Positions 29,401 to 61,235 of a DNA stretch of 64,000 bases are shown here, piece by piece. The stretch lies in IMG/VR virus record IMGVR_UViG_3300043179_000057, positions 1,601 through 65,600 of that record; one strand, given 5' to 3'. The DNA is from a virus. Position 1 is the stretch's first letter; the number at the start of each line of letters is the position of its first letter. The position numbers and the translations under genes are program-made. Below the pieces are notes generated by a model. It did no database searches. It worked only from the letters and a program-made list of their open reading frames with translations, and was not told where the DNA came from.

Positions 29401-29409
29401 TAAGATTGC
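29401..29409 (-). promoter_or_regulatory. Putative late promoter GCAATCTTA
   Basis: The motif recurs upstream of many - strand genes. Confidence 0.6.
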
Positions 29410-29413
29410 GTCC

Positions 29414-30721
29414 TTAGCCGACCTTCGCCCCGCGCTCGCTGCCCGGCCGCCCCCGGGCCATTATGAACCGGCGCAGCCTGTCGTAGAAGGTGGGGTAGTA
29501 GGCCGATATCCGGACCGGCCAACCCCCGTGAAAGTACCAGGACTCACCGGTGTTTACGGACTCCATGAGCATGGGGTGCTCCTGGAGGGACGCCGAGGCC
29601 TGGTACAGGGAAGCCACCGCCTCGGCCACCGAGACGGTCTCGTCCAGGGGCTCCACCGGGTTGTTCCCGCCCTCCGCCAGGACGTCCTCCACGACCGACG
29701 CCGACTCGCTCATGCCCACCAGGTAGGCCGCTAGGGAGTCCTGGGACTCCTCCAGGTCGGGCTCCTCCTCCAGGGGGGCCAGGTTGGCCACCAAGGCGTC
29801 CCCGGCCTCCGCCAGGGACACCGACTCGGGCAGTGCCTCCTCCGCGCCAGCGGACGAGCCCTCGGACTCGGAAAGCGTGACGGTCTCGGACGGGGAGGTC
29901 GCGTAGGCCGCGGACGCCGCCGCCGACTCGGACAGGGAGACGGTCTCCGACAGCGCCCCCACAAATGCCGTTGCGGACGCCTGCCCCTCCGACAGGGAGA
30001 CGGTCTCCTGGGGGGACGCGCCGTAGTCCACCGTGGTGGTCCCGGCTCCGTAGGTCGGGGAGTTGTTGGGGGTCAGGTGCAGCGCGTTGGGCCAGACGTC
30101 CTTGACCGAGTCCGCCCCGCTGGCCGTGCCCGAGGCGGCGTCCCGCAGCGGCCAGCGCGCCACCCCGCCGGTCGGGATGGTGTCGGTGACCACGTGGTCC
30201 TTGCCGAGGTCGTCGAAGAGGTCGTCGATTTCGGTTCCGGACAGGGCCCGGTCGTAGATCCGGACGTCCTCCATGTCCATGTCGGCGTCGTCGGCCTGGT
30301 CGGACCGCGACCCTACGCGGAGGACGGAGCTGCTGTTGAACAGGGTGCCCGAGAACGACGCTGAGCTGGCCTCCTCCACCCCGTCAACGTACAGACGGAT
30401 GGTGCTCCCATTCCAGGTCATGGCCACGTGCCGCCACGCGCCGGTCAGGAAGACCGTGGATCCGGTGAGGTTGGTGTTGGACGTGCCGTTGGTAGAGAGT
30501 CGGACCCTGAGCTGGTTGGTGGTCTCGAAGAAGAAGTAGTAGGCGAGGTCCGTGCCGGTCAAGCCCTTGCCGAGGATGCCGAACTGGTCTCCCGCCACGG
30601 AGGGCAGGGAGTTGAGCTTCACCCATGCCGAGATCGTCAGCGCGCTCGATATGTCGAGCAGGCTGCCGTCCGCCCTGGAGCAGTTCTGGTTGGCGGTGGC
30701 CCTGCGGAACTGGAGGGCCAC
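29414..30721 (-). CDS. LamG/ConA-like lectin domain plus 20-aa repeats (tail appendage)
   Basis: LTISAWVK, WRHVAMTWNGSTIRLYVDGV, DVRIYDRALS; ETVSLSE repeats. Confidence 0.82.
   Translation of the reverse strand: MALQFRRATANQNCSRADGSLLDISSALTISAWVKLNSLPSVAGDQFGILGKGLTGTDLAYYFFFETTNQLRVRLSTNGTSNTNLTGSTVFLTGAWRHVAMTWNGSTIRLYVDGVEEASSASFSGTLFNSSSVLRVGSRSDQADDADMDMEDVRIYDRALSGTEIDDLFDDLGKDHVVTDTIPTGGVARWPLRDAASGTASGADSVKDVWPNALHLTPNNSPTYGAGTTTVDYGASPQETVSLSEGQASATAFVGALSETVSLSESAAASAAYATSPSETVTLSESEGSSAGAEEALPESVSLAEAGDALVANLAPLEEEPDLEESQDSLAAYLVGMSESASVVEDVLAEGGNNPVEPLDETVSVAEAVASLYQASASLQEHPMLMESVNTGESWYFHGGWPVRISAYYPTFYDRLRRFIMARGRPGSERGAKVG
29555..30010 (-). repeat. Degenerate coding repeats with a 60-nt period
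   Basis: GACAGGGAGACGGTCTCC is exact at 29931 and 29991; decayed copies continue at 60-nt steps. Confidence 0.75.
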
Positions 30722-30724
30722 GGT

Positions 30725-31006
30725 CTAGTACCCCTTGTTCGGGTCGAACTCCCGCGCCTGGACCGCCAAGCCCGTCCCTACATCCACCTTCATGAAGCGC
30801 GCGTCGCCTTTGAACATGGGGGCCTTGCAGTCTGGGCACTCGGGGATGGCGTCGAGACCGGCGTGGCCACCGATGCGGCCGCAGTTGCCGCAGACCCACA
30901 GCAGGACCTGTCCGAACCGGGGGCGCTCCGGGGCGCCGTCCTCCGCGGCCTCGTTGGCCGCCAGGTCTATCTTCTCGTCCCCGAAGGCCATGGCGTCTTG
31001 CAGCAA
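30725..31006 (-). CDS. Zinc-ribbon hypothetical protein
   Basis: CGNCG…CPDC. Confidence 0.6.
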   Translation of the reverse strand: MLQDAMAFGDEKIDLAANEAAEDGAPERPRFGQVLLWVCGNCGRIGGHAGLDAIPECPDCKAPMFKGDARFMKVDVGTGLAVQAREFDPNKGY

Positions 31007-31030
31007 CCGGCGTATGGCTGCCGGGCTTCC

Positions 31031-31579
31031 TTACCCCAGGGTGATGGTGTAGGTGATCGTGAGGGTGTCCGACGTCTGGAGGTTGCGCTGCGTGAACCCG
31101 AGGACGTGGTTCATCGTGCCGCCGCTGCCGGCCGTGAAGAGGGCGGCCTTCTGGGCGCTCTGGGCGCCGGTGGCGGTGAACACCTTCTGCACGGTGGTCT
31201 GGTTGCCCGACCCGGTCGGAAGGGTCACGGTGCCGGCGGCGCGGGTGAGGCCGTTCGCCGCGATCTCGTTCGACAGGGTGGTCGAGGTGGCGGTCTCGGT
31301 CACGGTGTCGTTCGACAGAGCGATGAAGTTGAGGCCGTTGGCCCCCAGTCCGGTGTCCCCGTACCCCTGCCTGTGGAGGAATTGGCGCCCCGCGTTGGTG
31401 ATGAGGTTCCAGACCCTCTCGGTCTCCCCTACCTCGCGGTAGACGTACAGGCCCGTCTCCTCGTCCAGGACGGGGCGACGGTGCGTCACGACCATCGACG
31501 CGCGCCCGATGGGCACCACGGCGGACAGCCGACCTCCTAGGGAGGCGGCCAGGTTGCCGATGCTATCCTTGAGGGTCAT
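31031..31579 (-). CDS. Tail/baseplate-associated structural protein
   Basis: TTLSNEI…GLTRAAG, TVQKVFTA, AALFTA, LQTSDTLTITYTITLG; beta-rich structural pattern. Confidence 0.65.
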   Translation of the reverse strand: MTLKDSIGNLAASLGGRLSAVVPIGRASMVVTHRRPVLDEETGLYVYREVGETERVWNLITNAGRQFLHRQGYGDTGLGANGLNFIALSNDTVTETATSTTLSNEIAANGLTRAAGTVTLPTGSGNQTTVQKVFTATGAQSAQKAALFTAGSGGTMNHVLGFTQRNLQTSDTLTITYTITLG

Positions 31580-31629
31580 GCTTTTGCGGTCCTTTCTTAC
31601 GACGGGTCTCTGATGGGGAGCTTGTCCGA

Positions 31630-31637
31630 AAGATTGC
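31630..31637 (-). promoter_or_regulatory. Putative late promoter GCAATCTT
   Basis: Intergenic; upstream of the 31579 start. Confidence 0.55.
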
Positions 31638-31642
31638 GTGGG

Positions 31643-32143
31643 CTACCACTGGTACCTGTCGAAGATCCTCCACACCGACGACATGCCGCCCTTACGGTAT
31701 GCGTCAAGGAGGGCCGGCCACCCGAGGCCGTGCCTCTTGAGGGGTAGCTGGACGTGGGGGGCGTCCGGGAAGGACGCCCAGCGCAGGCCGGCCTCCAGGC
31801 CCAGGGCCGCCGCCTCGACGGCGAGGACCTCGTAGCTGGCCTTGTCGTAGTCGGGCTGGAGCCCCGGCTTGGCCAGGTCCTTGTCGTGGCACAGGTCGCA
31901 CGCCACCCCGTACTGGTGGGCGCTGTAGCCGCCCCGCGCCTTGGTCACGATGTCGCGCGACATGTCCGTGCGGCCGTACGAGTAGAGCTTGTCCTGCTCC
32001 TCGACCGTGCGCAGGCCGTTGGTGGCGTAGTACCTCCACCCGTTGACCTCGCAGCGGTCCGCCAGCGCCGCCAGCTTGACCGCGAAGGGCGGGTAGAGGA
32101 GTCGGGTGTTGATCCGGCCGAGAAGCTCGACGTGGGTCAGCAT
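31643..32143 (-). CDS. M15-family peptidoglycan peptidase (endolysin)
   Basis: GLRTVEEQDKLY, SAHQYGVACD, DAPHVQL. Confidence 0.88.
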   Translation of the reverse strand: MLTHVELLGRINTRLLYPPFAVKLAALADRCEVNGWRYYATNGLRTVEEQDKLYSYGRTDMSRDIVTKARGGYSAHQYGVACDLCHDKDLAKPGLQPDYDKASYEVLAVEAAALGLEAGLRWASFPDAPHVQLPLKRHGLGWPALLDAYRKGGMSSVWRIFDRYQW

Positions 32144-32148
32144 TTACC

Positions 32149-33531
32149 TTACGCTCCCACCGACCCGGGCGTCCCGTCGGCCCCGTCGGCCCCGTCCGCG
32201 CCGTAGTTCTCGATGTGGCGGTCCTGGTTGACGTGAACGATGATGCCTCCGCCCCCCTTGCGACCGCGGCGTCCCGCGCCGCCTCCGCCTCCGGCGCTGT
32301 TCTGCGCGGGATTGCTGCTGTCACCCCCATCACCGCCGTCGCCGCCGTCACCCCCATCACCGCCGTCGGCCTCGATGATGCCGGAGCCCTGAAGAAGGCT
32401 TCCGTAGATCAGGAAGATGGCCCCGGCGCCCCCGCCAGCGCCTCCAGAGCCCCCGCCGCCTCCGCCTCCTCCGCCCTGGTTCTCCACGCCGACCGTGGAG
32501 ACGCCCGGACCGCCGTCGCCGCCGTCGCCGCCAGCTCCGCCGTTGCCGCCGTTCGCGCGGATGACGCCGCCCCCGGAGATGTCGATGACCTTGGCGCACA
32601 GCCACACGAGGCCGCCGCTGCCGCCCGCGCCGCCGCCTCCGCCACCAGCTCCGCCGGTCGTCCGAGACCCGATCGGCGCGTTGCTGCTACCGCCGCCACC
32701 ACCGCCTCCCGCGCCACCACCACCGGCCAGGCCGCCACAAATGCGCTTCCATGCGGCGGTGGCCCCACCTGAGATGGAGCATGCCGAGGTTGCGGTAAGA
32801 TAGTGGGTGGCGGGCAGGAAGCTGCCCACCGCCCAGGTGACGGCCGACCCGACCGAGGCGTCGCTGCCGTTGCTGCCGGTGTCGCCGTCGTCTGCCTCGG
32901 ATGTGCCGGCCGCTCCGGCCGCTCCGCCTGTCGCCCCGCTGCCTGTGCCGCTGCCCGTGCCGCTGCCTCCGCCCGTCCCGCCGGCTCCGCCGGCTCGGCC
33001 AGCGTTGGAACCTACGATGCCGCCACCACCACCGCCGCCACCACCGCCTCCGGCACCGCCACCACCGCCACCGGCCTGGTGGCCAAGGGAGGTGGACGTG
33101 GAGCCGCCGTTGGAGCCGGCGCCGCCGTTGGCCGACGCCGTTCCTCCGTTGCCGCCCGCACCGCCGGCAGCCCCGGCAGCTCCATCGATAAATCCTGAGC
33201 CAGGCGAGCTGCCTGCGGTGCCTGCGGTGCCGCCCGTGGGGGCCGCCGGGGGCGGATCGTCGTTGTCGCCGTCGCCGCCGTCGCCGCCAGCTCCGCCGTT
33301 GCCGCCGCTGCGCGTGATAACGCACGACGAGTTGGCTAGGGTGATGTTCTCGGCGAACATCCGGTACCCGCCCGTGTTGAGGATCTGGGCTCCGGTGCCG
33401 TCCAGAACGACCTCGCCGTAGCTCTTGTCGCTCGCCAGCGTTACGCTGGTCGCCCCCGTCAGCGTGAGGTCGCCGTCGGTAGGCTCGGGGTTGAAGAACT
33501 CTATGTAGCCGGTGCCGCGAAATCCAGCCAT
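32149..33531 (-). CDS. Glycine-rich (PGRS-like) fibre protein
   Basis: GGxGGxGG repeats throughout; a 41-bp exact repeat at 32511 and 33267. Confidence 0.75.
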   Translation of the reverse strand: MAGFRGTGYIEFFNPEPTDGDLTLTGATSVTLASDKSYGEVVLDGTGAQILNTGGYRMFAENITLANSSCVITRSGGNGGAGGDGGDGDNDDPPPAAPTGGTAGTAGSSPGSGFIDGAAGAAGGAGGNGGTASANGGAGSNGGSTSTSLGHQAGGGGGGAGGGGGGGGGGGIVGSNAGRAGGAGGTGGGSGTGSGTGSGATGGAAGAAGTSEADDGDTGSNGSDASVGSAVTWAVGSFLPATHYLTATSACSISGGATAAWKRICGGLAGGGGAGGGGGGGSSNAPIGSRTTGGAGGGGGGAGGSGGLVWLCAKVIDISGGGVIRANGGNGGAGGDGGDGGPGVSTVGVENQGGGGGGGGGSGGAGGGAGAIFLIYGSLLQGSGIIEADGGDGGDGGDGGDGGDSSNPAQNSAGGGGGAGRRGRKGGGGIIVHVNQDRHIENYGADGADGADGTPGSVGA

Positions 33532-33535
33532 CGTC

Positions 33536-33823
33536 CTACTCCCCGACCCCTAGCTCTTCGCCGGCCGCCTTGATAGCGTCGAGATCCTGCCCGGGTGTCT
33601 TGGGCGCGTGCTCGTCGCAGAGCAGGCCCGACTTCTTGGGGTCGTACCCCTGGACCTCGTGGTCGAACGTCAGGTGCCCAAGGATCTTGAAGCATCCCTC
33701 GCCCTGACACGCAACGTCGTACCGGTATCGCTCCCTCTTGCCGGTCAGGGTCGCCTGGACGATCTTGCGCGGCTCGGCGGACGGCGCCGCCTGCGGGGCG
33801 GCCTTCTTGCTCTTCTTGGGCAT
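33536..33823 (-). CDS. Small Cys-containing hypothetical protein
   Basis: 95 aa; AT-rich RBS region upstream. Confidence 0.6.
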   Translation of the reverse strand: MPKKSKKAAPQAAPSAEPRKIVQATLTGKRERYRYDVACQGEGCFKILGHLTFDHEVQGYDPKKSGLLCDEHAPKTPGQDLDAIKAAGEELGVGE

Positions 33824-33837
33824 ATGCTTTTATTTCC

Positions 33838-35265
33838 TTACGAGGCTACGCTCTCGACGACCACGGCCACGACGCCGTCCGGCCACATCACACACACCTG
33901 CATACGCTCGTCAGGAGACGACAGACCGTTGCTGCGCAGGAAGAGGAAGGCCCTGTTCGCGGCGGGCGCCGAAGGGTCTGAGGCCGCCTTGCTCATGTGT
34001 ATGCCCTCTCTTACGAAGGCGAGGTCGTTGACGTCGATGGCCGCCACCACCGGAGCCGTGGGAACCGGCACGCTGGCGGACAGCAGCACTAGGCCGAGGA
34101 TGCTGGTGGTGGCCGGCACCGGGGCGTTGAGCCCCACGGCGAGCTGCTGGTCTCGGGAGAAGACGTCGGACCCGGACCGCCACAGGATGACGTACCTGGA
34201 TCCCGGCACGGTCGGATACCCGAGGGTGGTGAGGGCCGCCTTCTGGGCGACCAGGGGGTCAGCCCCCAAGATGGTGCGGTCCTGGGTTCGATCGACGTCC
34301 ACGTAGATGCAGTCCCCGTCGGCCAGGTCGGTGAGGCCGGCCAGGTCGGTAAGCTGGTCGGCGACCTCGTTCTGGTACCCGGTCGAATTATCGAAGACGA
34401 ACCGCAGCCCCTTCCAGTGGACGTTGGTGCCGTCCCACTCGTAGTGCTCGCCGGAGGCCAGGAATACGGGGCCGTAGGCTACGATCTTCACGTTCCGGTC
34501 GGCCGTCGGGCTGAACCAGCGCTCCCCCCCGCCGACCTCCCAGAGGCGGGTCATGACGGCGTCCGCCCAGCTCTTCATCCGGAGGCCCTTGTCGGCCCCC
34601 GCCCCGAACTCGGTGCTGTCGGTCCTGCCGGCGGGCCACGGGTACGAGTTCGTGGGGTCGGGCGTGCCGCCGCCCGTGCCCAGCCGGAACATGAAGTCCC
34701 GGGCGTCCTCGATCAGAGCCACCCCGTTCGAGGAGTCCGTGGTGACCTTGGCCACCGGGGCCAGGCCCGGGGTGGAGCTGAAGTCTGCGGTCGAGATGAC
34801 GATGCGGTAGTCCAGGGTCCGGGCTAGGGGGACCGTCTGGGGCCCCTCCAGGAGGGTGTCCGCGTTGAGGAACTGCACCAGGTCGGCGGTGCCGGAGTCG
34901 GCCGACCGCACGAGGTCGATGCCGACGAAGTTGACCTGCCCGGGCACGAACGCCCCGTCCACCCGGACGTTGGTCGCGGACAGGACCTCGTCCGCCCGGT
35001 CGGCCGGGACGTCGAACACGGTGCCGCTCTCCGAGGCCCTGGGGTGCAGCAGGAGGCCCCCCGCGGTCCGCAGGACGAGCTGGGATGCCTGGGCGACGCC
35101 GTTGTTGACCAGCTCGAAGCCGGAGACGATCAGGGCCCGATCGTCTGCCATGATGCGGCCGGCCAGGATGTCGAAGTCCCGCGCCACGCCGCTCTCCACC
35201 GACCGGAGGTGGGGGACGTCCTCGCGCTGCTGGCCGAGCCAGTTCTGCTGCCTGACGACCGCCAT
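33838..35265 (-). CDS. Structural protein (baseplate/fibre attachment)
   Basis: 475 aa, beta-rich, within the tail module; late motif 20 nt upstream. Confidence 0.7.
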   Translation of the reverse strand: MAVVRQQNWLGQQREDVPHLRSVESGVARDFDILAGRIMADDRALIVSGFELVNNGVAQASQLVLRTAGGLLLHPRASESGTVFDVPADRADEVLSATNVRVDGAFVPGQVNFVGIDLVRSADSGTADLVQFLNADTLLEGPQTVPLARTLDYRIVISTADFSSTPGLAPVAKVTTDSSNGVALIEDARDFMFRLGTGGGTPDPTNSYPWPAGRTDSTEFGAGADKGLRMKSWADAVMTRLWEVGGGERWFSPTADRNVKIVAYGPVFLASGEHYEWDGTNVHWKGLRFVFDNSTGYQNEVADQLTDLAGLTDLADGDCIYVDVDRTQDRTILGADPLVAQKAALTTLGYPTVPGSRYVILWRSGSDVFSRDQQLAVGLNAPVPATTSILGLVLLSASVPVPTAPVVAAIDVNDLAFVREGIHMSKAASDPSAPAANRAFLFLRSNGLSSPDERMQVCVMWPDGVVAVVVESVAS

Positions 35266-35284
35266 TTACCGTCTCACCGCCTTG

Positions 35285-35292
35285 AAGATTGC
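35285..35292 (-). promoter_or_regulatory. Putative late promoter GCAATCTT
   Basis: Intergenic. Confidence 0.55.
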
Positions 35293-35296
35293 CACC

Positions 35297-35731
35297 TTAC
35301 AGCCCCCCTCGGACGGGCTGGACCTCGTTGCCCCAGTCCATTCCCTCGAAGGCCACCGTGCCGGTTACCACCCCTCGGGAAGGGGCGCTCCAGCCCTGCG
35401 ACTCCACGAACGCCCGGTCCACCCGGAAGACCACCGTGTCGGTGTCCCGGTCCACCAGCATAAGGGCGCAATACTTCACGCGGCTGAGGTCCGGTATGGG
35501 CGCGGTCAGGCCCGCCCCCTCGGCGCCGCCGTCCCTGGCCGTCTTGATCAGGCGGATGACCCCGTGCACGCGGGTGGACTGCGGGATCAGCTCGGCCGGG
35601 GTCAGGGAGTCGAGCCCGTACGCCCTCCGGTGGGAGGTCTCGACGCTCCACGACATCTCGCTGACGCGTCCGAGCACTTCTCCGTTCACGTACAGCACCA
35701 GCTTCGCGCCGGTGACCACCACGGACTTCAC
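35297..35731 (-). CDS. Tail tube-like protein
   Basis: GTG 35731; LYVNGEVLGRVSEMSWSVE…GLDS..PAEL, QGWSAPSRGVVTGTVAFEG resembles the tube fold. Confidence 0.6.
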   Translation of the reverse strand: MKSVVVTGAKLVLYVNGEVLGRVSEMSWSVETSHRRAYGLDSLTPAELIPQSTRVHGVIRLIKTARDGGAEGAGLTAPIPDLSRVKYCALMLVDRDTDTVVFRVDRAFVESQGWSAPSRGVVTGTVAFEGMDWGNEVQPVRGGL

Positions 35732-35732
35732 G

Positions 35733-37562
35733 CTAGTCCCCCTCCCTGGCCGCCGCCATCTCGGCGTCCACGTCGTCCCCGGCCCATACCTGGACCTTGT
35801 CGGACAGCTTGTCGGCTCCCTCGGCCGGGAGGCCCTCCCCGCCCAGGCCGCGGTCCCCGGGGTAGACGACCTGCTTGTCCACCCGGACGCCGCCCGCCGC
35901 CACCTCGTCCACCATGCGCGACGCGGCAACCCGCCCGCTGCTGGAGGCGGTCACGTAGGCCGCTCCGGCGTTCGGTGGGTCGTCCGGGACGAACGACGCC
36001 CGCCCGCTCAGGAGGACCACTCGGTCCCCCTCTCGTACGTCCTCCGGGAAGGTGAAGGACCCGTCCAGGCGCAGGCTGGACCCAGAGAGGCGGCCCAGGT
36101 ACCTCACCGGCCCCACCTGGTCGGCGTACCCGAAGCGGAAGACCAGCCACCCGGGCTCGTCCGGGAACCGGAGGGCGGGGTCGGGGTCGCCCGTGTCGTC
36201 CAGCTCCAGGGCGGCGTGGTGCCGGCCGGCGTCCAGGCGCGCCCCTACGTCCGCCCCGATCGAGGTGACGGGGAGGCTGCCCGAGGGGTCCAGAAGGTAT
36301 GGGCCCGGGTCGCCCGCCTGACCCTCGGGGGCGGCCTCGGGGGTGACGAAGTCGCCCTCCCCCTGGCCGGCGGCCTCGGAGTCGGGGGTCTCGTAGGTGA
36401 ACGAGGTGGCCGAGGGCGCCGACGCCACCCGCGCCTCCCGGGAGGCGCGACCGTCCAGGACGGTCTCGGCCGCGGGCACCAGGATGTGGCTGCGGTCTTG
36501 GCTACCCCCCGCGATCAGGACGACCTCGTCGTCGAACGCCACCAGGCGCATGTCGGTGGAGTCTGCGGACAGGGTGGCCACGCTGAGGCGCCAGCGGCCG
36601 GTCCTCAGGTCCAGGTAGGCGATCTGGAGGCCGCGAGCGATGTACAGGCGCTCCCGGCAGATGGCGACCTGGAATCGGGAGCCCTCAAGGAGGGCCTTGC
36701 CCCACGGCGCCCACAGGCCGGTGGAGGGGTCCCATACCTCCGGGTGTGGGGTCGGCCCGCCGTTGGGGCTGCCCCCCACGGCCAGGACCCGTCCGTCCGG
36801 CAGGGCCGTGACGGAGTGTAGGTAGCGGGCCCTCGCCATCCTGCCGGTGGTCGCCCAGGTGTCGGTGCCCGGGTCGTAGATTTCGCAGTGCGTAGTGACG
36901 GCAACCTGGTCGAACCCGCCCGTCACCAGGACGCGGCCGTCGGCCAGCTTGATCTGGCCGTGTCCGGCGCGGGCCATGGACATCGACGCCGCGTACGCCC
37001 AGGTCTCGGTCCCCGGGTCCCATACCTCGGTCGTACTCTGAAACGGGAATGCGAGGTGGAACCCCCCCGTGACGAAGACCCTGCCGTCGTCCAGGACGGT
37101 GGCGCGGTGCAGGGCTCGACGCTCGTTCATGTCGGCGAGGGGCGTGAAGACCAGGTCCTCCGCGGGCAGCAGCGTGTGGGTGACCAGGGTCGTCGTCTTC
37201 TGCGACACGCCGTAGGCGTCGTCGTCGGCGCCGCCGATCGCGAGGACGCTGCCCGCGTGGTCGTCGTCTACGAGCGCCACGGCCTGGGGGTGGACCCCGT
37301 GGCCGACGATGGGGTAGTCGGGCCGCTTCCAGGCGTACCCGTATCGAACCGAGCCGTCCGGCAGCTCGGTCCGGGACGTGACGGAGAAGAGGGTCGGTAC
37401 GTTGATGGTGGCGTTGTCGCTGGTGCGCCTCCCGCCGAGGACGAACAGGTAGCCCGACCCGAGCATGGCGACGTCGTACCAGTGGCCCTCGAATCCGGTG
37501 GTCGGGGTCGCGTAGCTGGCGAGGCTGGCGTCGGTGTCGCCCGTTACGGTGTTGATGGCCAT
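35733..37562 (-). CDS. Kelch-repeat baseplate protein (C-terminal part of a possibly split gene)
   Basis: RALHRATVLDDGRVFVTGG, ARAGHGQIKLADGRVLVTGG, ARYLHSVTALPDGRVLAVGG. Confidence 0.8.
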   Translation of the reverse strand: MAINTVTGDTDASLASYATPTTGFEGHWYDVAMLGSGYLFVLGGRRTSDNATINVPTLFSVTSRTELPDGSVRYGYAWKRPDYPIVGHGVHPQAVALVDDDHAGSVLAIGGADDDAYGVSQKTTTLVTHTLLPAEDLVFTPLADMNERRALHRATVLDDGRVFVTGGFHLAFPFQSTTEVWDPGTETWAYAASMSMARAGHGQIKLADGRVLVTGGFDQVAVTTHCEIYDPGTDTWATTGRMARARYLHSVTALPDGRVLAVGGSPNGGPTPHPEVWDPSTGLWAPWGKALLEGSRFQVAICRERLYIARGLQIAYLDLRTGRWRLSVATLSADSTDMRLVAFDDEVVLIAGGSQDRSHILVPAAETVLDGRASREARVASAPSATSFTYETPDSEAAGQGEGDFVTPEAAPEGQAGDPGPYLLDPSGSLPVTSIGADVGARLDAGRHHAALELDDTGDPDPALRFPDEPGWLVFRFGYADQVGPVRYLGRLSGSSLRLDGSFTFPEDVREGDRVVLLSGRASFVPDDPPNAGAAYVTASSSGRVAASRMVDEVAAGGVRVDKQVVYPGDRGLGGEGLPAEGADKLSDKVQVWAGDDVDAEMAAAREGD

Positions 37563-37563
37563 G

Positions 37564-39294
37564 CTAGATCACCTGCGTCCCCGGGCTGCCGCTGTCCGTC
37601 CCCGCCGACACCGGCGGCAGGTCGGGCCCGAACCTGACCCCATCCACGATCACCATGTCCCCCTCCTCCAGGCCGTGGGGCCCGACCGTCTCCACGGTCA
37701 CGATGCCCAGAGCCCTGGACACCTGGTCCACCTCGACGGCGTCGGCCACCTTCGGGTACGCCGCCCTCTTGGGGCCGCGGACGACCACCTGCGTGGTGAC
37801 CGGCAGCACGACCTCCAGGCGGTCGCTCGGGGCCTGCGTGACGACGGCCTGCCGGGCCTGGTCGTGCAGGGTGTTGAGGGTCGGTCGGAAGAAGACCAGG
37901 GAGTTGGCGCCGTACTGCGTGACGCCTAGCTGCGTGAAGGACAGGCGGTCCACCTCGAACCACTGGTCCAGGACGCCCCCGGGGTAGGTGACGCTGACCC
38001 GCGTGACCTCGTACGTGCCGCGTAGGTCCTCGTCGAACTCCTGCCCGTACACCAGGACGTAGTCGCCCTCCTGGACCAGGGATAGGTCGTAGGCGCTCGT
38101 CCCCTGGCTGGTGAAGCGCACCCTGCTCTGGGTGTCCGGGGAGGCGTCCACGTCCCACGAGCCGAACGGACCGACGATCCCCGGGAACAGCTCCAGGGGG
38201 AACCGGAGGGCGACCTGCGCCCTGCCGCCGGTCACCCGGACGGTGCTGCCGAGGCCGCGGGCGTCCGCGTAGAGGCGCACGTAGACGTCTCCGGTCGAGG
38301 GGTCGGCGGTGGTGACCGCCACGGCCCTGACGCCGGCCGAGGTGAGCGCTCGGTTGACCGCGGCCACGACCTCCGCCGCGGTCGCCAACGCGATGCGCCC
38401 GAAGTCCTCCCTCCGGAAGGTGACGGTGACCTCCCGGCTCTCCCCGAACAGGAGCGTCAGGGTGTCGTTGTCGCGCAGCTCGAACGGCTCGGACGCCCCG
38501 GTCGTGGTGGCGGCCCGGGTGGCGTCCATGCTGTAGAACACCTCCAGGACGTCGTTGAGGGCCTTGTGCGTCACCCGGTCGTTGGCCAGGGCCAGGCCCA
38601 GGCGCCGGAAGTCGCCGTCCCCCATGCCGACCTTGTCGGGCCGCCGCACCCCCACCTCCCCGGCCCGCCGATCGAGGAACTGCCCCGAGGCGCTGACCAG
38701 GTAGAGCTGGTCGGCCGCCAGCCTGGCGTTCTCGGAGTTGGTGTCGTCCCCGGACCCGATGGCCGCCAGCAGGGCGTCCCAGGCCGGCCCTTCGAGGGCC
38801 GGGTTGAGGTAGGTGCGAAGCGCCTCCGCCCCGCCGTCGTTCTCGGCGCCCCCGTCCAGGGGGGTCTGGGCGCCGATCTGGGTCACCAGGAACTCGGCCT
38901 GCCCCGGCGCCGTGAGCGGGGTGCCCAGGGGGGTCTCGATGGCCTCCGAGGCGTCCAGGGTCCACACCCCGGGCTCCAGGGGGACGTCCGTGAACAGGTA
39001 GATGAGGAACGGGTCCTCGGGCACGAACTGGGCGACCACCACGGTCGCCGCGGCCGGGCCGCTGAGGGAGTAGTTGGCCGGGTTGGTGGCGTCGTCCACC
39101 CCGGCCGGGTTCCAGGCCTTGGGGATCTTGGAGAACCGGACGGCGACGAGCGCCGGCCCCAGGGGCGAGGCCGACTCGACCAGGAAGTCGCCCGCCGGCT
39201 CGCCTCCGGGCTGGCCGAGGCCCATGGTGGTCAGCAGCGCGCTGAAGCTGCCGGTCCCGTCCGAGCCGAGGCCCCCTGTGATGAGGAACGGCAT
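37564..39294 (-). CDS. Baseplate wedge protein (N-terminal part)
   Basis: 576 aa; SASGQFLDRRAGEVGVRRP wedge-like motif; RBS AGGAGG. Confidence 0.7.
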   Translation of the reverse strand: MPFLITGGLGSDGTGSFSALLTTMGLGQPGGEPAGDFLVESASPLGPALVAVRFSKIPKAWNPAGVDDATNPANYSLSGPAAATVVVAQFVPEDPFLIYLFTDVPLEPGVWTLDASEAIETPLGTPLTAPGQAEFLVTQIGAQTPLDGGAENDGGAEALRTYLNPALEGPAWDALLAAIGSGDDTNSENARLAADQLYLVSASGQFLDRRAGEVGVRRPDKVGMGDGDFRRLGLALANDRVTHKALNDVLEVFYSMDATRAATTTGASEPFELRDNDTLTLLFGESREVTVTFRREDFGRIALATAAEVVAAVNRALTSAGVRAVAVTTADPSTGDVYVRLYADARGLGSTVRVTGGRAQVALRFPLELFPGIVGPFGSWDVDASPDTQSRVRFTSQGTSAYDLSLVQEGDYVLVYGQEFDEDLRGTYEVTRVSVTYPGGVLDQWFEVDRLSFTQLGVTQYGANSLVFFRPTLNTLHDQARQAVVTQAPSDRLEVVLPVTTQVVVRGPKRAAYPKVADAVEVDQVSRALGIVTVETVGPHGLEEGDMVIVDGVRFGPDLPPVSAGTDSGSPGTQVI

Positions 39295-39309
39295 CTCTGC
39301 CCTCCTCCG

Positions 39310-39768
39310 CTACACCGGCGTCTTGCGGTACGGGTTGACGGCCACCGGGTTGCCGTCCTCGTCGGCCAGGTCGAAGATGAGGAGCACGGTGGTGTCGTCG
39401 TCGTCGTAGACCACCAGTTGGTTGATGTACGGTCCGGTCGTGTGGATCTGCGTCTTGTTGGTCAGCACCTTGCGCACGACGGCTAGCTCGTCGTCGTTCC
39501 AGTCCTCGGGGCGCATGTACCGGCTGATGTGCCCGGGGGCCGAGCCCGTCCCGGTGTTGAGGACGTATACGATGCCACGCGCCGCGTCAGCAAAGACGGG
39601 GGTGAACTTGTAGGCGCCCCCGCCCACCTCGGTTATGGCGGGCTGAGCCAGGTCGGCCCCCAGGTCGTCCTTGTAGGCTACGAACGACATGTCGCCCGCG
39701 ATCCCCGTCCTCGGGGCCCCGGTAGACTCGTCGTACACGACGAAGCACTCTATCTTGGGGCTAGCCAT
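39310..39768 (-). CDS. Hypothetical structural protein
   Basis: 152 aa; late motif 7 nt upstream. Confidence 0.7.
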   Translation of the reverse strand: MASPKIECFVVYDESTGAPRTGIAGDMSFVAYKDDLGADLAQPAITEVGGGAYKFTPVFADAARGIVYVLNTGTGSAPGHISRYMRPEDWNDDELAVVRKVLTNKTQIHTTGPYINQLVVYDDDDTTVLLIFDLADEDGNPVAVNPYRKTPV

Positions 39769-39775
39769 CGCCTAA

Positions 39776-39783
39776 AAGATTGC
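39776..39783 (-). promoter_or_regulatory. Putative late promoter GCAATCTT
   Basis: Intergenic. Confidence 0.55.
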
Positions 39784-39788
39784 CCCCT

Positions 39789-46601: not shown

Positions 46602-46626
46602 GCCTCTTGCCTACCTACCGGCGGTG

Positions 46627-46634
46627 AAGATTGC
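46627..46634 (-). promoter_or_regulatory. Putative late promoter GCAATCTT
   Basis: Intergenic; 25 nt before the start. Confidence 0.55.
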
Positions 46635-46660
46635 CGCCATCTCCTGGTAGAAGCAACGCG

Positions 46661-49263: not shown

Positions 49264-49272
49264 TAAGATTGC
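49264..49272 (-). promoter_or_regulatory. Putative late promoter GCAATCTTA
   Basis: Intergenic; a few nt before ATG 49258. Confidence 0.55.
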
Positions 49273-52672: not shown

Positions 52673-55621
52673 CTACGGCCCGACCTTGATGAGGGAGGTG
52701 ACCCGGCCTATCTTCTCCGTGTGCGCCTGGAGGGCCCGGGTGAAGCCGGTCAGGGCGTTCTCCCAGCTCGCCTGCATGGCCGCCACGTTGGCCCCGCCGC
52801 GGTCCCCCGCGGTCACGTTCTTGAGCATGGCCTGCAGCTCGATAGACACCTTGGCCATGGCCTGGGCCGCCGCGACGACGTCCTTGCCCATGCCGCCGCC
52901 GCGCAGCTCGCCCTCGCGTTGGCTGGCCTCGGAGATGCCCGCCCCGATCCCGCGCTCGCGGGCCTTCCTCGACACGCCGGACGTGGCGCCTCCGCCCACC
53001 AGCTCGGGGCTCAGGCCCTTGTCCCCGGCTACCTGAACCTCCAGGAGGCCCTCGGCCTCGTCCACCGTCATGCCGAGGTTCCGTCCGAGGATGCTGCCCA
53101 CCGACCGCAGCTCGGGGCGGTAGATGTCCTGGGCCTGGCGCCGCATGTGGGCCAGCTCCTTGTTCTCGCGGGCGGACCGCTTACCCTTGCCGGCCAGCTC
53201 GTCCATCCGGTCGATGTCGAAGTTCCGCTCCTTGAGGAGGTGGCGGACGAACGCGGGGGCGTCGCCCCCCGCCTCGGAGAAGCCCTGCATGGTCTTGGCT
53301 ATCGCGCTACCGGGCTTGAACTGCTTCGACATCACGCCGACCCGGGCCGACGAGAAGCCCTGCTGGATGAACGACTGGAGGTCGCCCTTCTCCAGGCCCA
53401 TGCGCTTCATCTCGTCCGGGACGTTGCCGGTGCGCATGACCTCCAGCATCGCCGCCGGGGTCATGTCCTGCATGGCCTGCCAGGCGTAGGACCCGGCGTT
53501 CGGTGCCGCCCGTCGGGCGGCCATGTACATGAGCGCCTGGTGGAGGTTGTCGGTCTTGCCCCCGAACAGGCGCCCGGTTGCTCCCATGCCCTCAGTCAGG
53601 ATGCGGGCCTGGCGCTGCTCCATGCCGGAGGTGATCTCCCCGGGCTTGATGGCCGGGGTGTAGGCGGCCGAGGTGAGGGCGCGTATGGACTCGGCCCCCG
53701 TGAACTGGCCCACGTCCCCCGGGCCGGGCCCGAAGCCGCCCATGAGCTGCTGCATCACGGGGTTGGCGAGCTGCCGGCCGGCGGCGATCTCTAGTCCGCC
53801 CTGGCCCATGCCGATCGAGCGCTGCAGCGCCTCCAGGGCCGGAGGCAGCCTGCCGCGGGCCAGGGGCCCCCCGAACTGCGCCATGGTGCCAAACATCTCG
53901 TTGACGTTGTAGAGGCCGCCCTGCTGCATCCCGAGCAGCCTTGGTCCGTACCCCACAAACCGCTCGCCCGCGGCGCTCCGGACCGCCGCCCTGGCGCCCA
54001 CGTACTCGCTGACGTCATACCCGGCCGCCTCGGCCTGCACCTTAAGGCGGTCGAGGTCGGACATCGGGGGGCCGCCCTTCCTGGCGACCACCTCCCCGGA
54101 GATGCGGCCGGCACGCATCATGGCCATGCGGCCGAAGGCATCACTGGTCATCCGCTCCATGAGGGCGGTCTGGAGCGGGTTCTCCTGGACCTTGAGGTCC
54201 ACCCACTTCTTGAACCGCTCAGCGGCCTCGGGGCCCATGTTGCGCAGCGAGCGCTCGAAGTCGATGTCCTGCGGCAGCCTGGTGGACTCCTCGATCGTCT
54301 TGGGCTCGGCCTGGCGAGAGTGCGTCCTCGCGGGCGGCGCCTTGGCCGCCTGGAAAAACCCGCCCGGCGCCGACTCGTCCAACGTGAGCATCTCCATGGC
54401 CTCGGGGGACAGCGGCTGCCCCAGGGTCCCGAGGAACTGTCCCATCTTCTGCTTGACCCGGGTAGCGACCTGCTTGACTCCCACGGCCCCGCCAGGCGCG
54501 GTCGTCTTGCCCGTGAACTGGCTGTCGAAGGTAGGCAGGCCGGCCCTCTTAGCCGCCACCTCCTCGCGGCGCTGCCACTGCACCACGTCGGCCATGTCCT
54601 TGATGAAGTTCGGGTCCTTGCGCAGCGACATCAGGGCGCCCGCTCGGGCGGCGTCGCGGCCGAACAGGACCTGGGCCCCGAGGCCTCCTATGGCGGCCCC
54701 GGTGCGGGCCGACTTCTCGATCCCGTACATCGGCTGGCGCAGGGCCTCCTCGGTGTTTGCCAGCGCGTTGCTCTTGAGGGCCTCCGAGCCCCAGTCGTAC
54801 GCCTTGTAGGCCGCGTACCCGACGCCGAGGGGGATGCCGTACCGGGCGACCGCGGCGCCCACGCCGAACGGCAGCTTCTCCTCAAGGAAGGCCCCTACGC
54901 CTCCCCCCGCGCCTCCCCGACCTCCGCCAGCCCCGCGCCCGCCGCCGCCCGCCGCCGCAGCCGCCCCCGGAGGGGCCAGGAAGGGCTCGTTGGGCAGCGT
55001 GGTGTAGTCGCCCGCCCCCGGCCTGGGGGGGCCACCCCGACCCCTGATCGCGATCGAGCGCGTCGTCTCGGCCACCAGCTCCTGTAGGGAGGGGGCCTCT
55101 ATAGGAGCCCGGGCCGCCCCCCGCATGGCTGCGGGCGCCTGACCAGGAAGGCTGCCCATGGTGTCCTTGACCGCGGCCAGCTCCTTGACCAGGTTGCGAA
55201 CATCGTCGGTCAGGCGCTGAACGCCAACCCCCATCTGGTCCAGGGGGGCTCTGGCAGCCTGAGCGGTCGCCTGCAGCTCGCTCCGGATGGTCGAAAAGGA
55301 ACCCTTGACGCCATCGGACCCGCCTTTGAAGACGCTAATCAGGCTCTGTCCCAGCCTCAGCAGGGAGTCGGTCACTCCTCCGCCCAGACGCGCCGTCTGC
55401 TGGGCGGCCTGGAAGCCAGCGGTGGGGGCCGCCCCCGGGGTAGTGGAGACCTGGAAGGGCGCGGCCCCGAGGCCCCCCGCCCCGCCCAGCCCGAGCTGGA
55501 CGCGGGAGAAGGTCTCGACCAGCTTCTGGGCGTCGCTGATCAGCTCCCGGATCGTGTTCTGCGCCTTGCGGGCGGAGACCTCGTCTACGACGAGCTTTAT
55601 GCTTACGGTCTTCTCTGCCAC
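52673..55621 (-). CDS. Tape measure protein
   Basis: 982 aa, Ala/Gly-rich and helical; follows two small chaperone-like genes and precedes the hub. Confidence 0.72.
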   Translation of the reverse strand: MAEKTVSIKLVVDEVSARKAQNTIRELISDAQKLVETFSRVQLGLGGAGGLGAAPFQVSTTPGAAPTAGFQAAQQTARLGGGVTDSLLRLGQSLISVFKGGSDGVKGSFSTIRSELQATAQAARAPLDQMGVGVQRLTDDVRNLVKELAAVKDTMGSLPGQAPAAMRGAARAPIEAPSLQELVAETTRSIAIRGRGGPPRPGAGDYTTLPNEPFLAPPGAAAAAGGGGRGAGGGRGGAGGGVGAFLEEKLPFGVGAAVARYGIPLGVGYAAYKAYDWGSEALKSNALANTEEALRQPMYGIEKSARTGAAIGGLGAQVLFGRDAARAGALMSLRKDPNFIKDMADVVQWQRREEVAAKRAGLPTFDSQFTGKTTAPGGAVGVKQVATRVKQKMGQFLGTLGQPLSPEAMEMLTLDESAPGGFFQAAKAPPARTHSRQAEPKTIEESTRLPQDIDFERSLRNMGPEAAERFKKWVDLKVQENPLQTALMERMTSDAFGRMAMMRAGRISGEVVARKGGPPMSDLDRLKVQAEAAGYDVSEYVGARAAVRSAAGERFVGYGPRLLGMQQGGLYNVNEMFGTMAQFGGPLARGRLPPALEALQRSIGMGQGGLEIAAGRQLANPVMQQLMGGFGPGPGDVGQFTGAESIRALTSAAYTPAIKPGEITSGMEQRQARILTEGMGATGRLFGGKTDNLHQALMYMAARRAAPNAGSYAWQAMQDMTPAAMLEVMRTGNVPDEMKRMGLEKGDLQSFIQQGFSSARVGVMSKQFKPGSAIAKTMQGFSEAGGDAPAFVRHLLKERNFDIDRMDELAGKGKRSARENKELAHMRRQAQDIYRPELRSVGSILGRNLGMTVDEAEGLLEVQVAGDKGLSPELVGGGATSGVSRKARERGIGAGISEASQREGELRGGGMGKDVVAAAQAMAKVSIELQAMLKNVTAGDRGGANVAAMQASWENALTGFTRALQAHTEKIGRVTSLIKVGP

Positions 55622-55636: not shown

Positions 55637-56128
55637 CTACGAAGATTGGCCCCGGTGGTACTCTAGCGCATCGCGTTCAAGGTCGTCCACCGGGAAGGTC
55701 ATGTGGACGTCCGGCGGCAGCTCGACCGCCGTCCTGGGGGCCGGGTCCGAGGGGATGACCGTCTTCTCCTTTTCGGCGGCCTCCTCCGCCTCGACCTCCC
55801 GGCGGTACTGCTCGGCGTCTGCGTCGGCCGCGTCCTCCTCCCAGCGGGCCCGGCGCAGCTCCTCCTCCGTCATGGACAGGCGGCGCCGCTCGGCGTCGAG
55901 GCGGGCGGGGTCGTCCTTGGCCAGGGCCTCGTAGTGGTCCTCGTAGTAGTGCCGCAGCACGTCCTCCAGGGGCAGGTCGTCCACCTGGTGGAGCGGGGTG
56001 TGGTACTTCTCCGAGTACCAGCGGTGGATGCCCCGCAGGACGTACTCCGGGTCCTGCTTGGCCTCCGGGTCCTGGCCCCGCAGGACGTCCGCCAGGGCCC
56101 GGGTCTGGATGGCCCGGAACTCGTCCAA
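55637..56128 (-). CDS. Tail assembly chaperone, second ORF
   Basis: RWYSEKYHTPLHQVDDLPLEDVLRHYYE; in frame with the upstream ORF. Confidence 0.65.
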   Translation of the reverse strand: MDEFRAIQTRALADVLRGQDPEAKQDPEYVLRGIHRWYSEKYHTPLHQVDDLPLEDVLRHYYEDHYEALAKDDPARLDAERRRLSMTEEELRRARWEEDAADADAEQYRREVEAEEAAEKEKTVIPSDPAPRTAVELPPDVHMTFPVDDLERDALEYHRGQSS

Positions 56129-56134: not shown

Positions 56135-56560
56135 CTACCCCGCCGCTGGGGCCTTGGCCTCGGCCTTCTTGAGGTCGGCCTGGGCCTCCTCGGCCTGCTT
56201 CCTGATCTTCTCCTGGCGCCGCTTCTCGGGGGCCATGGCCTTGTCGTACACCTCGGAGACGATCGAGTCGTCCTCCAGGTCCATGCCGTTGCCGTTGTCG
56301 GTCCACCAGGACGGCGCCGAGACGACGCGCACCGCGAGCTGGCTGAACACCTCGGCCATCACGATCGACCGGTCGCTCGGGCGGGGCCCGCCGTCGGCGC
56401 CCCCGAGAAGCTCCCGGCGGATGCGGTCCTGGGTCAGGCGGTCGCGGTGCGACAGCCTGGTCTTGACCTTGAACACCCCCTTGCGGGTCTCCTCGGTGGT
56501 CTCGCCCTTCGCGGAGACCACGAACTCCTCCACCCCGACGTCCGCTCCCTGCTCTGCCAT
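56135..56560 (-). CDS. Tail assembly chaperone, first ORF
   Basis: Canonical position two genes upstream of the tape measure; 141 aa. Confidence 0.65.
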   Translation of the reverse strand: MAEQGADVGVEEFVVSAKGETTEETRKGVFKVKTRLSHRDRLTQDRIRRELLGGADGGPRPSDRSIVMAEVFSQLAVRVVSAPSWWTDNGNGMDLEDDSIVSEVYDKAMAPEKRRQEKIRKQAEEAQADLKKAEAKAPAAG

Positions 56561-56597: not shown

Positions 56598-56605
56598 TAA
56601 GATTA
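56598..56605 (-). promoter_or_regulatory. Late-promoter variant TAATCTTA
   Basis: Heads the - strand tail block. Confidence 0.5.
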
Positions 56606-56628
56606 TTTTCGGCCTTTGCTGTTTTTTG

Positions 56629-56657: not shown

Positions 56658-56663
56658 AGCCGT

Positions 56664-57320: not shown

Positions 57321-57351
57321 GGAAGCCCACACCCAAAGAGGAGGATACCCT

Positions 57352-59062: not shown

Positions 59063-59071
59063 GGGCGGGCC

Positions 59072-59100: not shown

Positions 59101-59107
59101 GGCCTGG

Positions 59108-59335: not shown

Positions 59336-59336
59336 G

Positions 59337-59513: not shown

Positions 59514-59692
59514 GCGCCGAGGCGTGGTTCTTCGCGGTGCAGGTAGACAACGGGCGCTGCGGCCACTGCGGGGAGGGCAAGGACCCGCTGGAGGTGTGCC
59601 TGATGGACGCGAAGCTCCAGAGGGAGCACCATCGGGGCTGCCTGGTCTGCGCCGAGTGCCGGAGGCGCCAGGAGCGGGAGTACGGGCCGTGA
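59510..59692 (+). CDS. Small CxxC-CxxC protein
   Basis: SAEAWFFAVQVDNGRCGHCG…CLVCAEC; GTGA overlaps. Confidence 0.55.
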   Translation: MSAEAWFFAVQVDNGRCGHCGEGKDPLEVCLMDAKLQREHHRGCLVCAECRRRQEREYGP

Positions 59693-60153
59693 TGATTGGG
59701 TACGTGCACTCGGATGACACAGTCAATGTGTGGGGACCGCATGGGGTCGAGCGGATGTCGCGAGAGAGATTCCTCCTCATGAAGGCGGGAATCTCTCCGC
59801 TCAGACCTCACGCCGAGCAAGGACACGCCGAGCGGGTGGTGGCCCGCGCCATAGAGCGGGACCGCCCACGGGCGGAGATGGTCGCACGAGAGCCGAGACA
59901 CACGGTCTCGGTCATGAACGTGATATCGAAGGACCCTCCCGCAAGGTCGCGATGCGAGATTTGTGACCATGAGTTCTGCCCGCTACCGAAGGCGCCGGCT
60001 AGCTGGTCAGACGGCCCTCGCCGTCACGAGGATGACGATGCCGTAGACCTGCAGCCGTACCTATGTAGCGAGTGCCTCAATCCGAAGCCACCCCAGATGA
60101 GGCCAAGACGCCCCTGGTGGCTGCCGGCGGTCAGGCTCCTGGCCAGGATATGA
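59689..60153 (+). CDS. Hypothetical protein with CxxC pairs
   Basis: CEICDHEFC…LCSEC. Confidence 0.55.
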   Translation: MMIGYVHSDDTVNVWGPHGVERMSRERFLLMKAGISPLRPHAEQGHAERVVARAIERDRPRAEMVAREPRHTVSVMNVISKDPPARSRCEICDHEFCPLPKAPASWSDGPRRHEDDDAVDLQPYLCSECLNPKPPQMRPRRPWWLPAVRLLARI

Positions 60154-60293
60154 GCTGGCTCCTGGATCGCTACGTGCTCGACTGGTGGTCCCTCGTCCAC
60201 CTCCTCGGGTGGGCGGCCCTGGGGGCCGCCCTGGCCATCCGCATGCGGGGGCGCGGTACGTCGTCGAGGTGGCCAAGAACGCCCGCCGGGTGA
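60150..60293 (+). pseudogene. Truncated membrane protein
   Basis: LDWWSLVHLLGWAALGAALAI hydrophobic start, then an abrupt change of sequence character. Confidence 0.4.
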
Positions 60294-60577
60294 GGTTCCC
60301 GGGCGAGGGGACGCACGCCCCGGTGCCGGCCGAAGCCGCCGGCCAGGACGTCCCCCTGGTCAACGCGCCGCAGATCGACGTGTCCGAGCTGGGGTCCTGC
60401 CTGGCCAACGGGGAGCCCTTCGCGGTCGCCTGGTGGCAGCGCGCCGACGGGATGTTCGTGTACAGCCTGAGGTCCCAGGAGCCTAGCAAGGTGGACGTAT
60501 CCGCCGTCGCCAAGGCGTTCGGCGGCGGGGGCCACGCCCGCGCCGCCGGGTTCCAGGTCCGCGAGCTGCTCTTCTAG
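60269..60577 (+). CDS. Isolated DHHA1 domain (C-terminal part of a DHH phosphoesterase)
   Basis: VYSLRS…VDVSAVAKAFGGGGHARAAGF; no DHH domain upstream. Confidence 0.65.
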   Translation: MAKNARRVRFPGEGTHAPVPAEAAGQDVPLVNAPQIDVSELGSCLANGEPFAVAWWQRADGMFVYSLRSQEPSKVDVSAVAKAFGGGGHARAAGFQVRELLF

Positions 60578-60579
60578 CC

Positions 60580-60705
60580 CTACCAGGGCCCGAGGGCCGG
60601 GGGCCGGAGGCGTCGCTCGACGCGCAGGACGAGGTCTAGCAGGCGCAGCAGCGGCACGGCCACCGCCCACCTGAAGAGCCAGTGCGCCGCCCTGCGCACG
60701 CGCAC
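60580..60705 (-). CDS. Small hydrophobic/basic peptide
   Basis: RVRRAAHWLFRWAVAVPLLRLLDLVLR; 41 aa. Confidence 0.4.
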   Translation of the reverse strand: MRVRRAAHWLFRWAVAVPLLRLLDLVLRVERRLRPPALGPW

Positions 60706-60707
60706 GC

Positions 60708-61037
60708 CTACCTGGAGCAGGTCCCGCAGGGGCCGGGCCGGTACTGGTGCCCCACGCCGGCCCTCTCCCTGGCGGGGGCCGCCCTCCTGCAGGCCTCGCG
60801 GCCCCAGCCACAGGTGCGGCAGGACTGCCTGGAGCCGGCGCAGCGCCGGCACGAGGGGGCGGTGGGGGTGCGGACCGGGTCCGGAGGGGAGGGCGCGGGC
60901 GCCTCGGGGGCCGCGACGACCCCCTCCACGGCGGCCGGGGGCGGATCGGTCGGTTCGGCTACGGGATCGGTCGGTTGTCGGTCGATCCCCTCGGGGGCCA
61001 CGGAGGCCCCCTCCGCCCTCTTCCTCCGCCTCCCCAC
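60708..61037 (-). CDS. Pro-rich protein with C-terminal CxxC motifs
   Basis: 109 aa; CRRC, CRTC, CGTC. Confidence 0.5.
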   Translation of the reverse strand: MGRRRKRAEGASVAPEGIDRQPTDPVAEPTDPPPAAVEGVVAAPEAPAPSPPDPVRTPTAPSCRRCAGSRQSCRTCGWGREACRRAAPARERAGVGHQYRPGPCGTCSR

Positions 61038-61049
61038 GTCCTACGCCCC

Positions 61050-61211
61050 CTAGCCCCGGCGGCGCCAGCGGGCCCAGCGCGGCGACTTGATGCCTGCGAC
61101 CATGCAGGACGCCCACCAGAGGCCGAACGAGGCCAGGTCGGCGACGTCGGTCGCGAGCGCCAGCGGCCACGCGGCCAGCAGGCGGGACTTCTTGATGATG
61201 TGGTGCAACAT
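61050..61211 (-). CDS. Small hydrophobic protein, 53 aa
   Basis: ATG 61211 with RBS GGAGG, downstream of a late motif. Confidence 0.5.
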   Translation of the reverse strand: MLHHIIKKSRLLAAWPLALATDVADLASFGLWWASCMVAGIKSPRWARWRRRG

Positions 61212-61226
61212 TTCTTACCTCCAGGG

Positions 61227-61235
61227 TAAGATTGC
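61227..61235 (-). promoter_or_regulatory. Putative late promoter GCAATCTTA
   Basis: Same motif as in the tail module. Confidence 0.6.

Follow-up and report, generated by a model that had tools for sequence, protein, structure and literature searches.

Truncated phage σ factors acting at late promoters that consist of a −10 element only are already known from T4 and phiEco32. The T4 factor gp55 has ~185 aa and is related to σ region 2 only. In phiEco32, gp36 lacks region 4 and reads a single element, tAATGTAtA, from which transcription starts 6–8 bp downstream (PMC8948821). Here we analyzed a 64,000-nt stretch of viral DNA (designated the window; bases 1601–65600 of the IMG/VR contig IMGVR_UViG_3300043179_000057, 81,240 bp, 69.5% GC), in which a short word, GCAATCTT, recurs upstream of genes of the tail/baseplate module. 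Our data suggest that (G)CAATCTT, with the core AATCTT, is probably the −10-type element of a single-element late promoter in a large, globally distributed clade of myoviruses related to Myxococcus phage Mx1 (OR576727.2; 169.6 kb; 55.5% GC), which is the nearest named relative of the source phage. The term late is used here on the basis of gene function. A literature search found nothing on Mx1 promoters (the genome announcement of this phage and a 2026 survey of myxophages are silent on them), and a search with the motif word gave nothing apart from unrelated primers. New features are the element sequence, the domain composition of the candidate σ factor (an N-terminal extension followed by regions 2-3-4.1), the extent of the clade and a use of leaderless mRNAs for late genes that appears to be systematic.

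On the + strand the word reads AAGATTGC, and in this form it was present at all seven window positions given by the first-pass annotation, with no further copy on either strand of the window (Table 1). Shuffled sequences had a mean of 0.35 copies (maximum 3), and none of 100 shuffles reached 7. In the whole contig the sense form GCAATCTT occurred in 8 exact copies, all of them on the − strand and none on the + strand. A scan of all 8-mers in the contig, run independently of the earlier hypothesis, also ranked it first for over-representation (8 observed vs 0.22 expected, 3rd-order Markov model). The core AATCTT was found 10 times in the window (2.86 expected) and 14 times in the contig, and all 14 copies were located 6–50 nt upstream of, and on the same strand as, an ATG or GTG that opened an open reading frame (ORF) with a GC content at third codon positions (GC3) of at least 0.91. 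As the core was absent from the rest of the 81-kb contig, there may be active selection against stray copies. The motif is thus strand-specific and is not equally frequent in coding sequences on both strands. A strand-biased word of the Chi, KOPS or primase type was ruled out, since no copy was inside coding sequence.

The two variants that had been reported, at 55642 and 56599, were also detected, and the measured distances to the − strand starts (6–50 nt) agreed with the reported range. The exact copies were inside intergenic gaps of 15–63 nt, consistent with the tiny gaps described in that annotation, and the variant CCAATCTT overlapped the final codons of the upstream gene. The earlier list of sites was correct but incomplete, as it had missed the + strand variant GGAATCTT. 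Genes behind the window sites belong to the tail/baseplate module and include baseplate J, a baseplate/tube-initiator gene and neighbors of an endolysin-like gene.

Table 1. Copies and variants of the AATCTT motif, and σ70-type promoters (window coordinates unless stated).
Element	Position	Strand	Distance to start codon	Gene or ORF	Remarks
GCAATCTT	29402..29409	−	14 nt (ATG)	123-aa gene (29016-29387)	intergenic gap 26 nt
GCAATCTT	31630..31637	−	50 nt (ATG)	182-aa gene (31031-31579)	directly downstream of endolysin-like gene
GCAATCTT	35285..35292	−	19 nt (ATG)	475-aa gene (33838-35265)	Mx1 ortholog (139197) has GTAATCTT before it
GCAATCTT	39776..39783	−	7 nt (ATG)	152-aa gene (39310-39768)	no Shine-Dalgarno; candidate leaderless start
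GCAATCTT	46627..46634	−	25 nt (ATG)	2270-aa baseplate-J/Kelch gene (39789-46601)	in Mx1 ortholog, GCAATCTT 36 nt upstream
GCAATCTT	49265..49272	−	6 nt (ATG)	865-aa baseplate gene (46661-49258)	no Shine-Dalgarno; Mx1 ortholog has ACAATCTT, also 6 nt
variant CCAATCTT (+ strand reading AAGATTGG)	55642..55649	−	20 nt (GTG)	982-aa gene at tape-measure position (52673-55621)	
variant ATAATCTT (+ strand reading AAGATTAT)	56599..56606	−	38 nt (ATG)	first tail-operon gene (56135-56560)	
GCAATCTT	61228..61235	−	16 nt (ATG)	53-aa ORF (61050-61211)	divergent intergenic region
variant GGAATCTT	20278..20285	+	7 nt (in-frame ATG, 20293)	ClpP-like protease gene	begins at last base of helicase stop codon
GCAATCTT	contig 73552	−	6 nt (ATG)	166-aa ORF	within tRNA array
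σ70-type promoters	3909, 6850, 27889, 56664, 61281; contig 79240, 80734	+	exactly 6 nt each (ATG/GTG)		

Flank profiles were built from 10 sites of the contig, 33 of a complete relative designated G002 (169,280 bp; 65% GC) and 25 of Mx1. Information was confined to the motif and to 3–5 G/C bases just upstream of it, and nothing was conserved ~17 bp upstream of the motif, in agreement with the earlier observation that a −35 consensus is absent. A consensus scan of positions 29000–49000 found no σ70-type promoter. Such promoters occurred before high-GC3 ORFs on the + strand of the contig, and all seven had the form TTGnnn-N16-18-TAnnnT-N6-ATG/GTG, in a scan that permitted spacers of 5–8 nt between the −10 hexamer and the start codon. 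Since the 6-nt spacer was found in each of the seven, a −10 hexamer followed by N6 and a start codon appears to mark a leaderless gene in this phage. Judged from this spacing, the early genes of the phage also appear to be expressed as leaderless mRNAs.

A similar arrangement was found for the motif. AATCTT-N6/7-ATG without a Shine-Dalgarno sequence was present at 39776, 49265 and 20278 and at contig positions 73552 and 66737, and most sites separated from the start codon by at least 14 nt had a purine-rich, Shine-Dalgarno-like stretch in this interval. Among 498 distinct copies of CAATCTT in all gathered loci, 50 had an ATG exactly 6 nt downstream, compared with ~2% for other offsets and for control words. 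Alignment of the N6 class places AATCTT at −12 to −7, with A at −11 and T at −7 preserved. These two are the best-conserved positions of σ70-type −10 elements. This geometry suggests that the motif takes the place of the −10 hexamer and that N6-ATG genes without a ribosome-binding site give rise to leaderless mRNAs.

The motif might instead act at the RNA level on polycistronic late transcripts, either as the site of a phage or host endoribonuclease that cuts a few nt downstream, yielding processed and in some cases leaderless mRNAs, or as a translation-initiation enhancer. It is sense-oriented in tiny gaps between co-directional genes that have no terminators, so that read-through transcripts would contain it, and a fixed distance to ATG could equally denote a cleavage site. 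However, a processing site offers no reason why the 6-nt spacing should be shared with the σ70-type −10 hexamers of the contig and why A at −11 and T at −7 should be kept. In addition, some copies stand at the head of operons in intergenic regions between divergent genes, which no sense transcript should reach from upstream (56599 and 61228; 13009 and 111012 in Mx1), and the same clade has a σ factor without region 4.2, which predicts exactly such a promoter. We therefore regard a signal in RNA as quite unlikely. Its enhancer form was ruled out by the range of distances to the start codon (6–50 nt), which is unsuited to a ribosome-positioning element.

We further checked the occurrence of the putative promoter element in related phages. 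The contig carries a replication module on the + strand (window 1–29000; ribonucleotide reductase, PolIII alpha, DnaB-like helicase, ClpP-like protease, Dam and others) and a tail/baseplate module on the − strand (window 29016–56560), which includes the 2270-aa baseplate-J/Kelch protein, the 865-aa baseplate/tube-initiator protein and an endolysin-like protein. An array of 27 tRNA genes with interspersed small ORFs is located past the end of the window (contig 71176–76972, − strand). With a CheckV completeness of 49%, the contig represents about half of the genome, and the region coding for capsid, portal, terminase and sheath is missing. A megablast search of GenBank phages with the baseplate-J gene gave no match, and it took a search at the protein level to detect Mx1. 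The contig and Mx1 share 47% identity in PolIII alpha, and the replication and tail/baseplate modules of the two are syntenic. On these sequence grounds, the source phage is a large myovirus related to Mx1.

The Mx1 genome contains 15 exact copies of GCAATCTT, of which 10 are on the + strand. Genes preceded by NCAATCTT or a close variant code for the portal (TCAATCTT), prohead protease, sheath (GCAATCTA), tailspike, the protein at the tape-measure position, baseplate (ACAATCTT-N6-ATG), baseplate J and Kelch proteins, and also include gene 139197. The form GCAATCTT-N6-ATG was found for the prohead protease and for the tape-measure-position gene. Five of the Mx1 positions have an orthologous counterpart among the window sites (56599, 55642, 49265, 46627 and 35285). 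For example, the Mx1 gene syntenic to the 982-aa gene (75289) has GCAATCTT 6 nt before its ATG, and the ortholog of the first tail-operon gene (74303) has cctAATCTT upstream. Gene 111047, the only + strand gene among the − strand genes of the 85–121 kb region, was also preceded by the motif, and none of the − strand (early) genes of Mx1 was seen to have a copy before it.

Several additional observations were made in this genome. The annotated start of the prohead protease gene (13002) is upstream of its GCAATCTT-N6-ATG, and the ATG at 13023 is probably the true start. An unannotated GCAATCTT-N6-ATG was found on the − strand at 18240. The most over-represented 8-mer of Mx1 was a different word, AGATCCGC/GCGGATCT (31 copies vs 3.4 expected), which contains GATC. 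Many of its copies are in the spacer of early promoters of the TTGAC...TAGTAT type, immediately 5′ of the −10 hexamer (− strand, ~85–122 kb).

An alignment-guided scan of IMG/VR and metagenomes yielded 144 loci with 33–73% GC, 103 of which had distinct upstream regions. The 90 nt preceding baseplate J contained AATCTT in 60 of these 103 relatives, and this was the commonest of the 4096 hexamers in the region. The corresponding values were 3 (median) for permutations of the same composition, 3 for a window inside the gene and 3 for the antisense word. A word of this kind could also be the product of chance or of base composition, since high-GC coding sequence is poor in AT-rich words, which would gather in the non-coding gaps of a 70% GC genome, where alone they are tolerated. 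Such an origin is very improbable, given the shuffles and the rank of the word under the Markov model, its complete strand specificity in the contig, its conservation in genomes of 33–73% GC and the 20-fold rarity of same-composition permutations upstream of baseplate J.

The complete relative G002 contained 27 forward and 3 reverse copies of GCAATCTT, many of them in the N6-ATG form. Annotation of ten motif-preceded G002 genes with PHROG gave one baseplate protein, two HNH endonucleases and seven proteins without a family match. Each of the two HNH homing-endonuclease genes (L159:6462-7004 and L160:1831-2541) has its own GCAATCTT located 8 nt before the ATG, and these mobile genes appear either to bring along a phage late promoter or to have inserted behind one. 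Homing-endonuclease genes of T4 resemble them in this respect. A distant relative, L002, which was the sole find of an IMG/VR scan with a single protein, showed no enrichment (CAATCTT, 5 copies vs 5.7 expected). A low-GC subclade (L042, L044, L047-L049 and L056; 36–46% GC) had no AATCTT before baseplate J. AT-rich words such as TATAAATA or GATATGATATA occur there, which may reflect an altered promoter specificity or merely the end of the upstream gene.

A candidate for the protein that reads the element was found in Mx1, where a putative RNA polymerase sigma factor is annotated beside the helicase (WNM70309). The gene was present in all three complete relatives examined as well as in Mx1, and at least 800 homologs were detected in public data, most of which were unnamed or labeled as sigma by JGI. 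Pfam Sigma70_r2 gave only sub-threshold matches to this protein. A profile of 30 sequences matched σ70/SigA structures from region 2.1 to region 4.1 (E ~1e-6). The proteins are 335–360 aa long and contain regions 2, 3 and 4.1, preceded by an N-terminal extension of ~130 aa without any match. They stop a few residues past the 4.1 motif and lack the helix-turn-helix of region 4.2, and no σ region 4 was found in the ORFs adjoining the gene. An AlphaFold model based on the 30-sequence alignment had a predicted local distance difference test (pLDDT) score of 81, and an alignment of 3 sequences gave an unusable model (pLDDT 43). All Foldseek matches listed for the model were primary σ chains of holoenzyme structures (SigA, RpoD and SigB), most with a probability of 1.00. 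By sequence profile and predicted structure, the candidate factor belongs to the σ70 family and has the σ2-σ3 fold. For a σ factor that lacks region 4.2, promoters devoid of −35 boxes are to be expected.

The first-pass annotation had proposed a late promoter of the T4 gp55 type with a different sequence, implying a specificity factor encoded by the phage. The single element and its distinct sequence were borne out, but the architecture of the candidate factor does not resemble that of gp55: this protein was absent from the listed sequence and fold matches, all of which were σ70, SigA, RpoS or SigB, and the nearest precedent is phiEco32 gp36. As for the factor itself, a σ70-family protein without region 4.2 is encoded by the complete relatives, but not by the window or the contig.

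In the mechanism that we propose, AATCTT would stand where TATAAT stands in a σ70 promoter, with a few G/C bases directly upstream and no −35 box. Transcription would start 6–7 nt downstream of AATCTT, and genes whose start codon is exactly at this position would be transcribed into leaderless mRNAs. Among the sites at a distance of at least 9 nt, most have the Shine-Dalgarno-like, purine-rich stretch ahead of the start codon. The element would be read by the host core RNA polymerase together with the phage σ70-family protein (WNM70309 of Mx1 and its homologs), whose regions 2, 3 and 4.1 are not followed by the −35-reading helix-turn-helix of region 4.2.

The pairing of this σ with the motif is based on their co-occurrence in the clade only, which would also allow the motif to be a promoter element for a host σ factor, or a site for a phage activator or repressor (stoperator, Ogr/Q-type). 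Cluster A stoperators of mycobacteriophages and the start-associated sequences (SAS) of Cluster K are likewise short, asymmetric repeats that are located in small intergenic gaps near start codons and are co-oriented with the genes and their transcription, and the AATCTT motif shares all these features. However, stoperators are repressor sites of temperate phages and occur on both genome arms, whereas the motif was seen only before late-type genes and never before a − strand (early) gene of Mx1. For SAS the distance is short and fixed and the repeat overlaps the ribosome-binding site, whereas the AATCTT motif is 6–50 nt away from the start codon and has a sharply defined leaderless class at 6 nt. 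The motif is kept in phages of 33–73% GC, which presumably have diverse hosts, and this argues for a phage-borne reader; it also occupies the −10 position rather than the upstream position of an activator site. No other candidate regulator turned up, although no systematic search for one was made. A host σ factor or a regulator is thus an unlikely reader of the motif. An array of stoperators or repressor operators in particular does not fit the −10 geometry and the restriction to late-type genes, lysogeny genes not having been searched for systematically.

Several observations do not fit easily with a phage σ that reads AATCTT as a late promoter. In Mx1, the other strand holds 5 of the 15 exact copies, and a few copies are within genes; thus, the 8-mer alone is insufficient in this genome of 55% GC. 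The major capsid, terminase and endolysin genes of Mx1 have no motif copy within 100 nt. Exact AATCTT is missing before baseplate J in 43 of the 103 relatives, many of which have variants with one mismatch. The aromatic residues of region 2.3 that hold the flipped −10 bases in σ70 are not conserved in the alignment of the σ-like proteins, and recognition of the −10 element may therefore work differently. Finally, tblastn and profile searches did not find the σ gene on the contig, and the factor is inferred from relatives only. Its absence from the contig is expected because the gene adjoins the terminase/portal region in Mx1, which is missing here, and we ascribe it to the incompleteness of the contig and not to absence from the phage.

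On balance, we lean slightly toward a broader view in which the whole clade of ~170-kb Mx1-like phages, with genomes of 33–73% GC, runs its late program by an undescribed system. A σ70-family protein with a novel N-terminus and no region 4.2 would read GCAATCTT, often starting on the A of the start codon, and a large fraction of the virion proteins would be translated from leaderless mRNAs. The motif can be used to annotate late operons and true start codons in the clade, as for the Mx1 prohead protease, and the promoter and its σ might provide a compact orthogonal pair for high-GC hosts such as Myxococcus.

Compared with σ70 promoters of the TATAAT or leaderless type, AATCTT shares A at −11, T at −10 and T at −7 and the distance of 6 nt from start codons that is also found for the early TAnnnT hexamers. 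It differs in the absence of a −35 box or TG extension, in having A at −12 and CT at −9/−8 in place of T and AA, and in the conserved G/C bases immediately upstream. T4 late promoters, which carry TATAAATA at −10 and are served by gp55 with gp33 and the gp45 clamp, are similar in that an 8-bp −10 element suffices without a −35 box and in that many copies are in very short gaps before virion genes, including internal operon promoters. However, a T4 late promoter proper can be rejected, as the consensus is GCAATCTT and not TATAAATA, and the candidate factor, with 335–360 aa and regions 2 to 4.1, is unlike gp55. The middle/late promoters that depend on phiEco32 gp36 are likewise single elements of 8–9 bp without a −35 box that precede late genes, and gp36, like the proposed reader, is a phage σ70-family protein without region 4 that works with the host core RNA polymerase (PMC8948821); the same argument applies to it, namely that a σ lacking the −35-reading region implies promoters lacking −35 boxes. 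This likeness is one of architecture, but the σ described here keeps regions 3 and 4.1 and has the ~130-aa N-terminal extension. Moreover, phiEco32 is a podovirus and not a ~170-kb myovirus, its element is not GCAATCTT, and, unlike in phiEco32, many of the starts predicted here would yield leaderless mRNAs. If correct, our interpretation would add a third independent pair of a truncated phage σ and a −10-only promoter to those of T4 gp55 and phiEco32 gp36, and would tie −10-only promoters to the systematic leaderless expression of virion genes.

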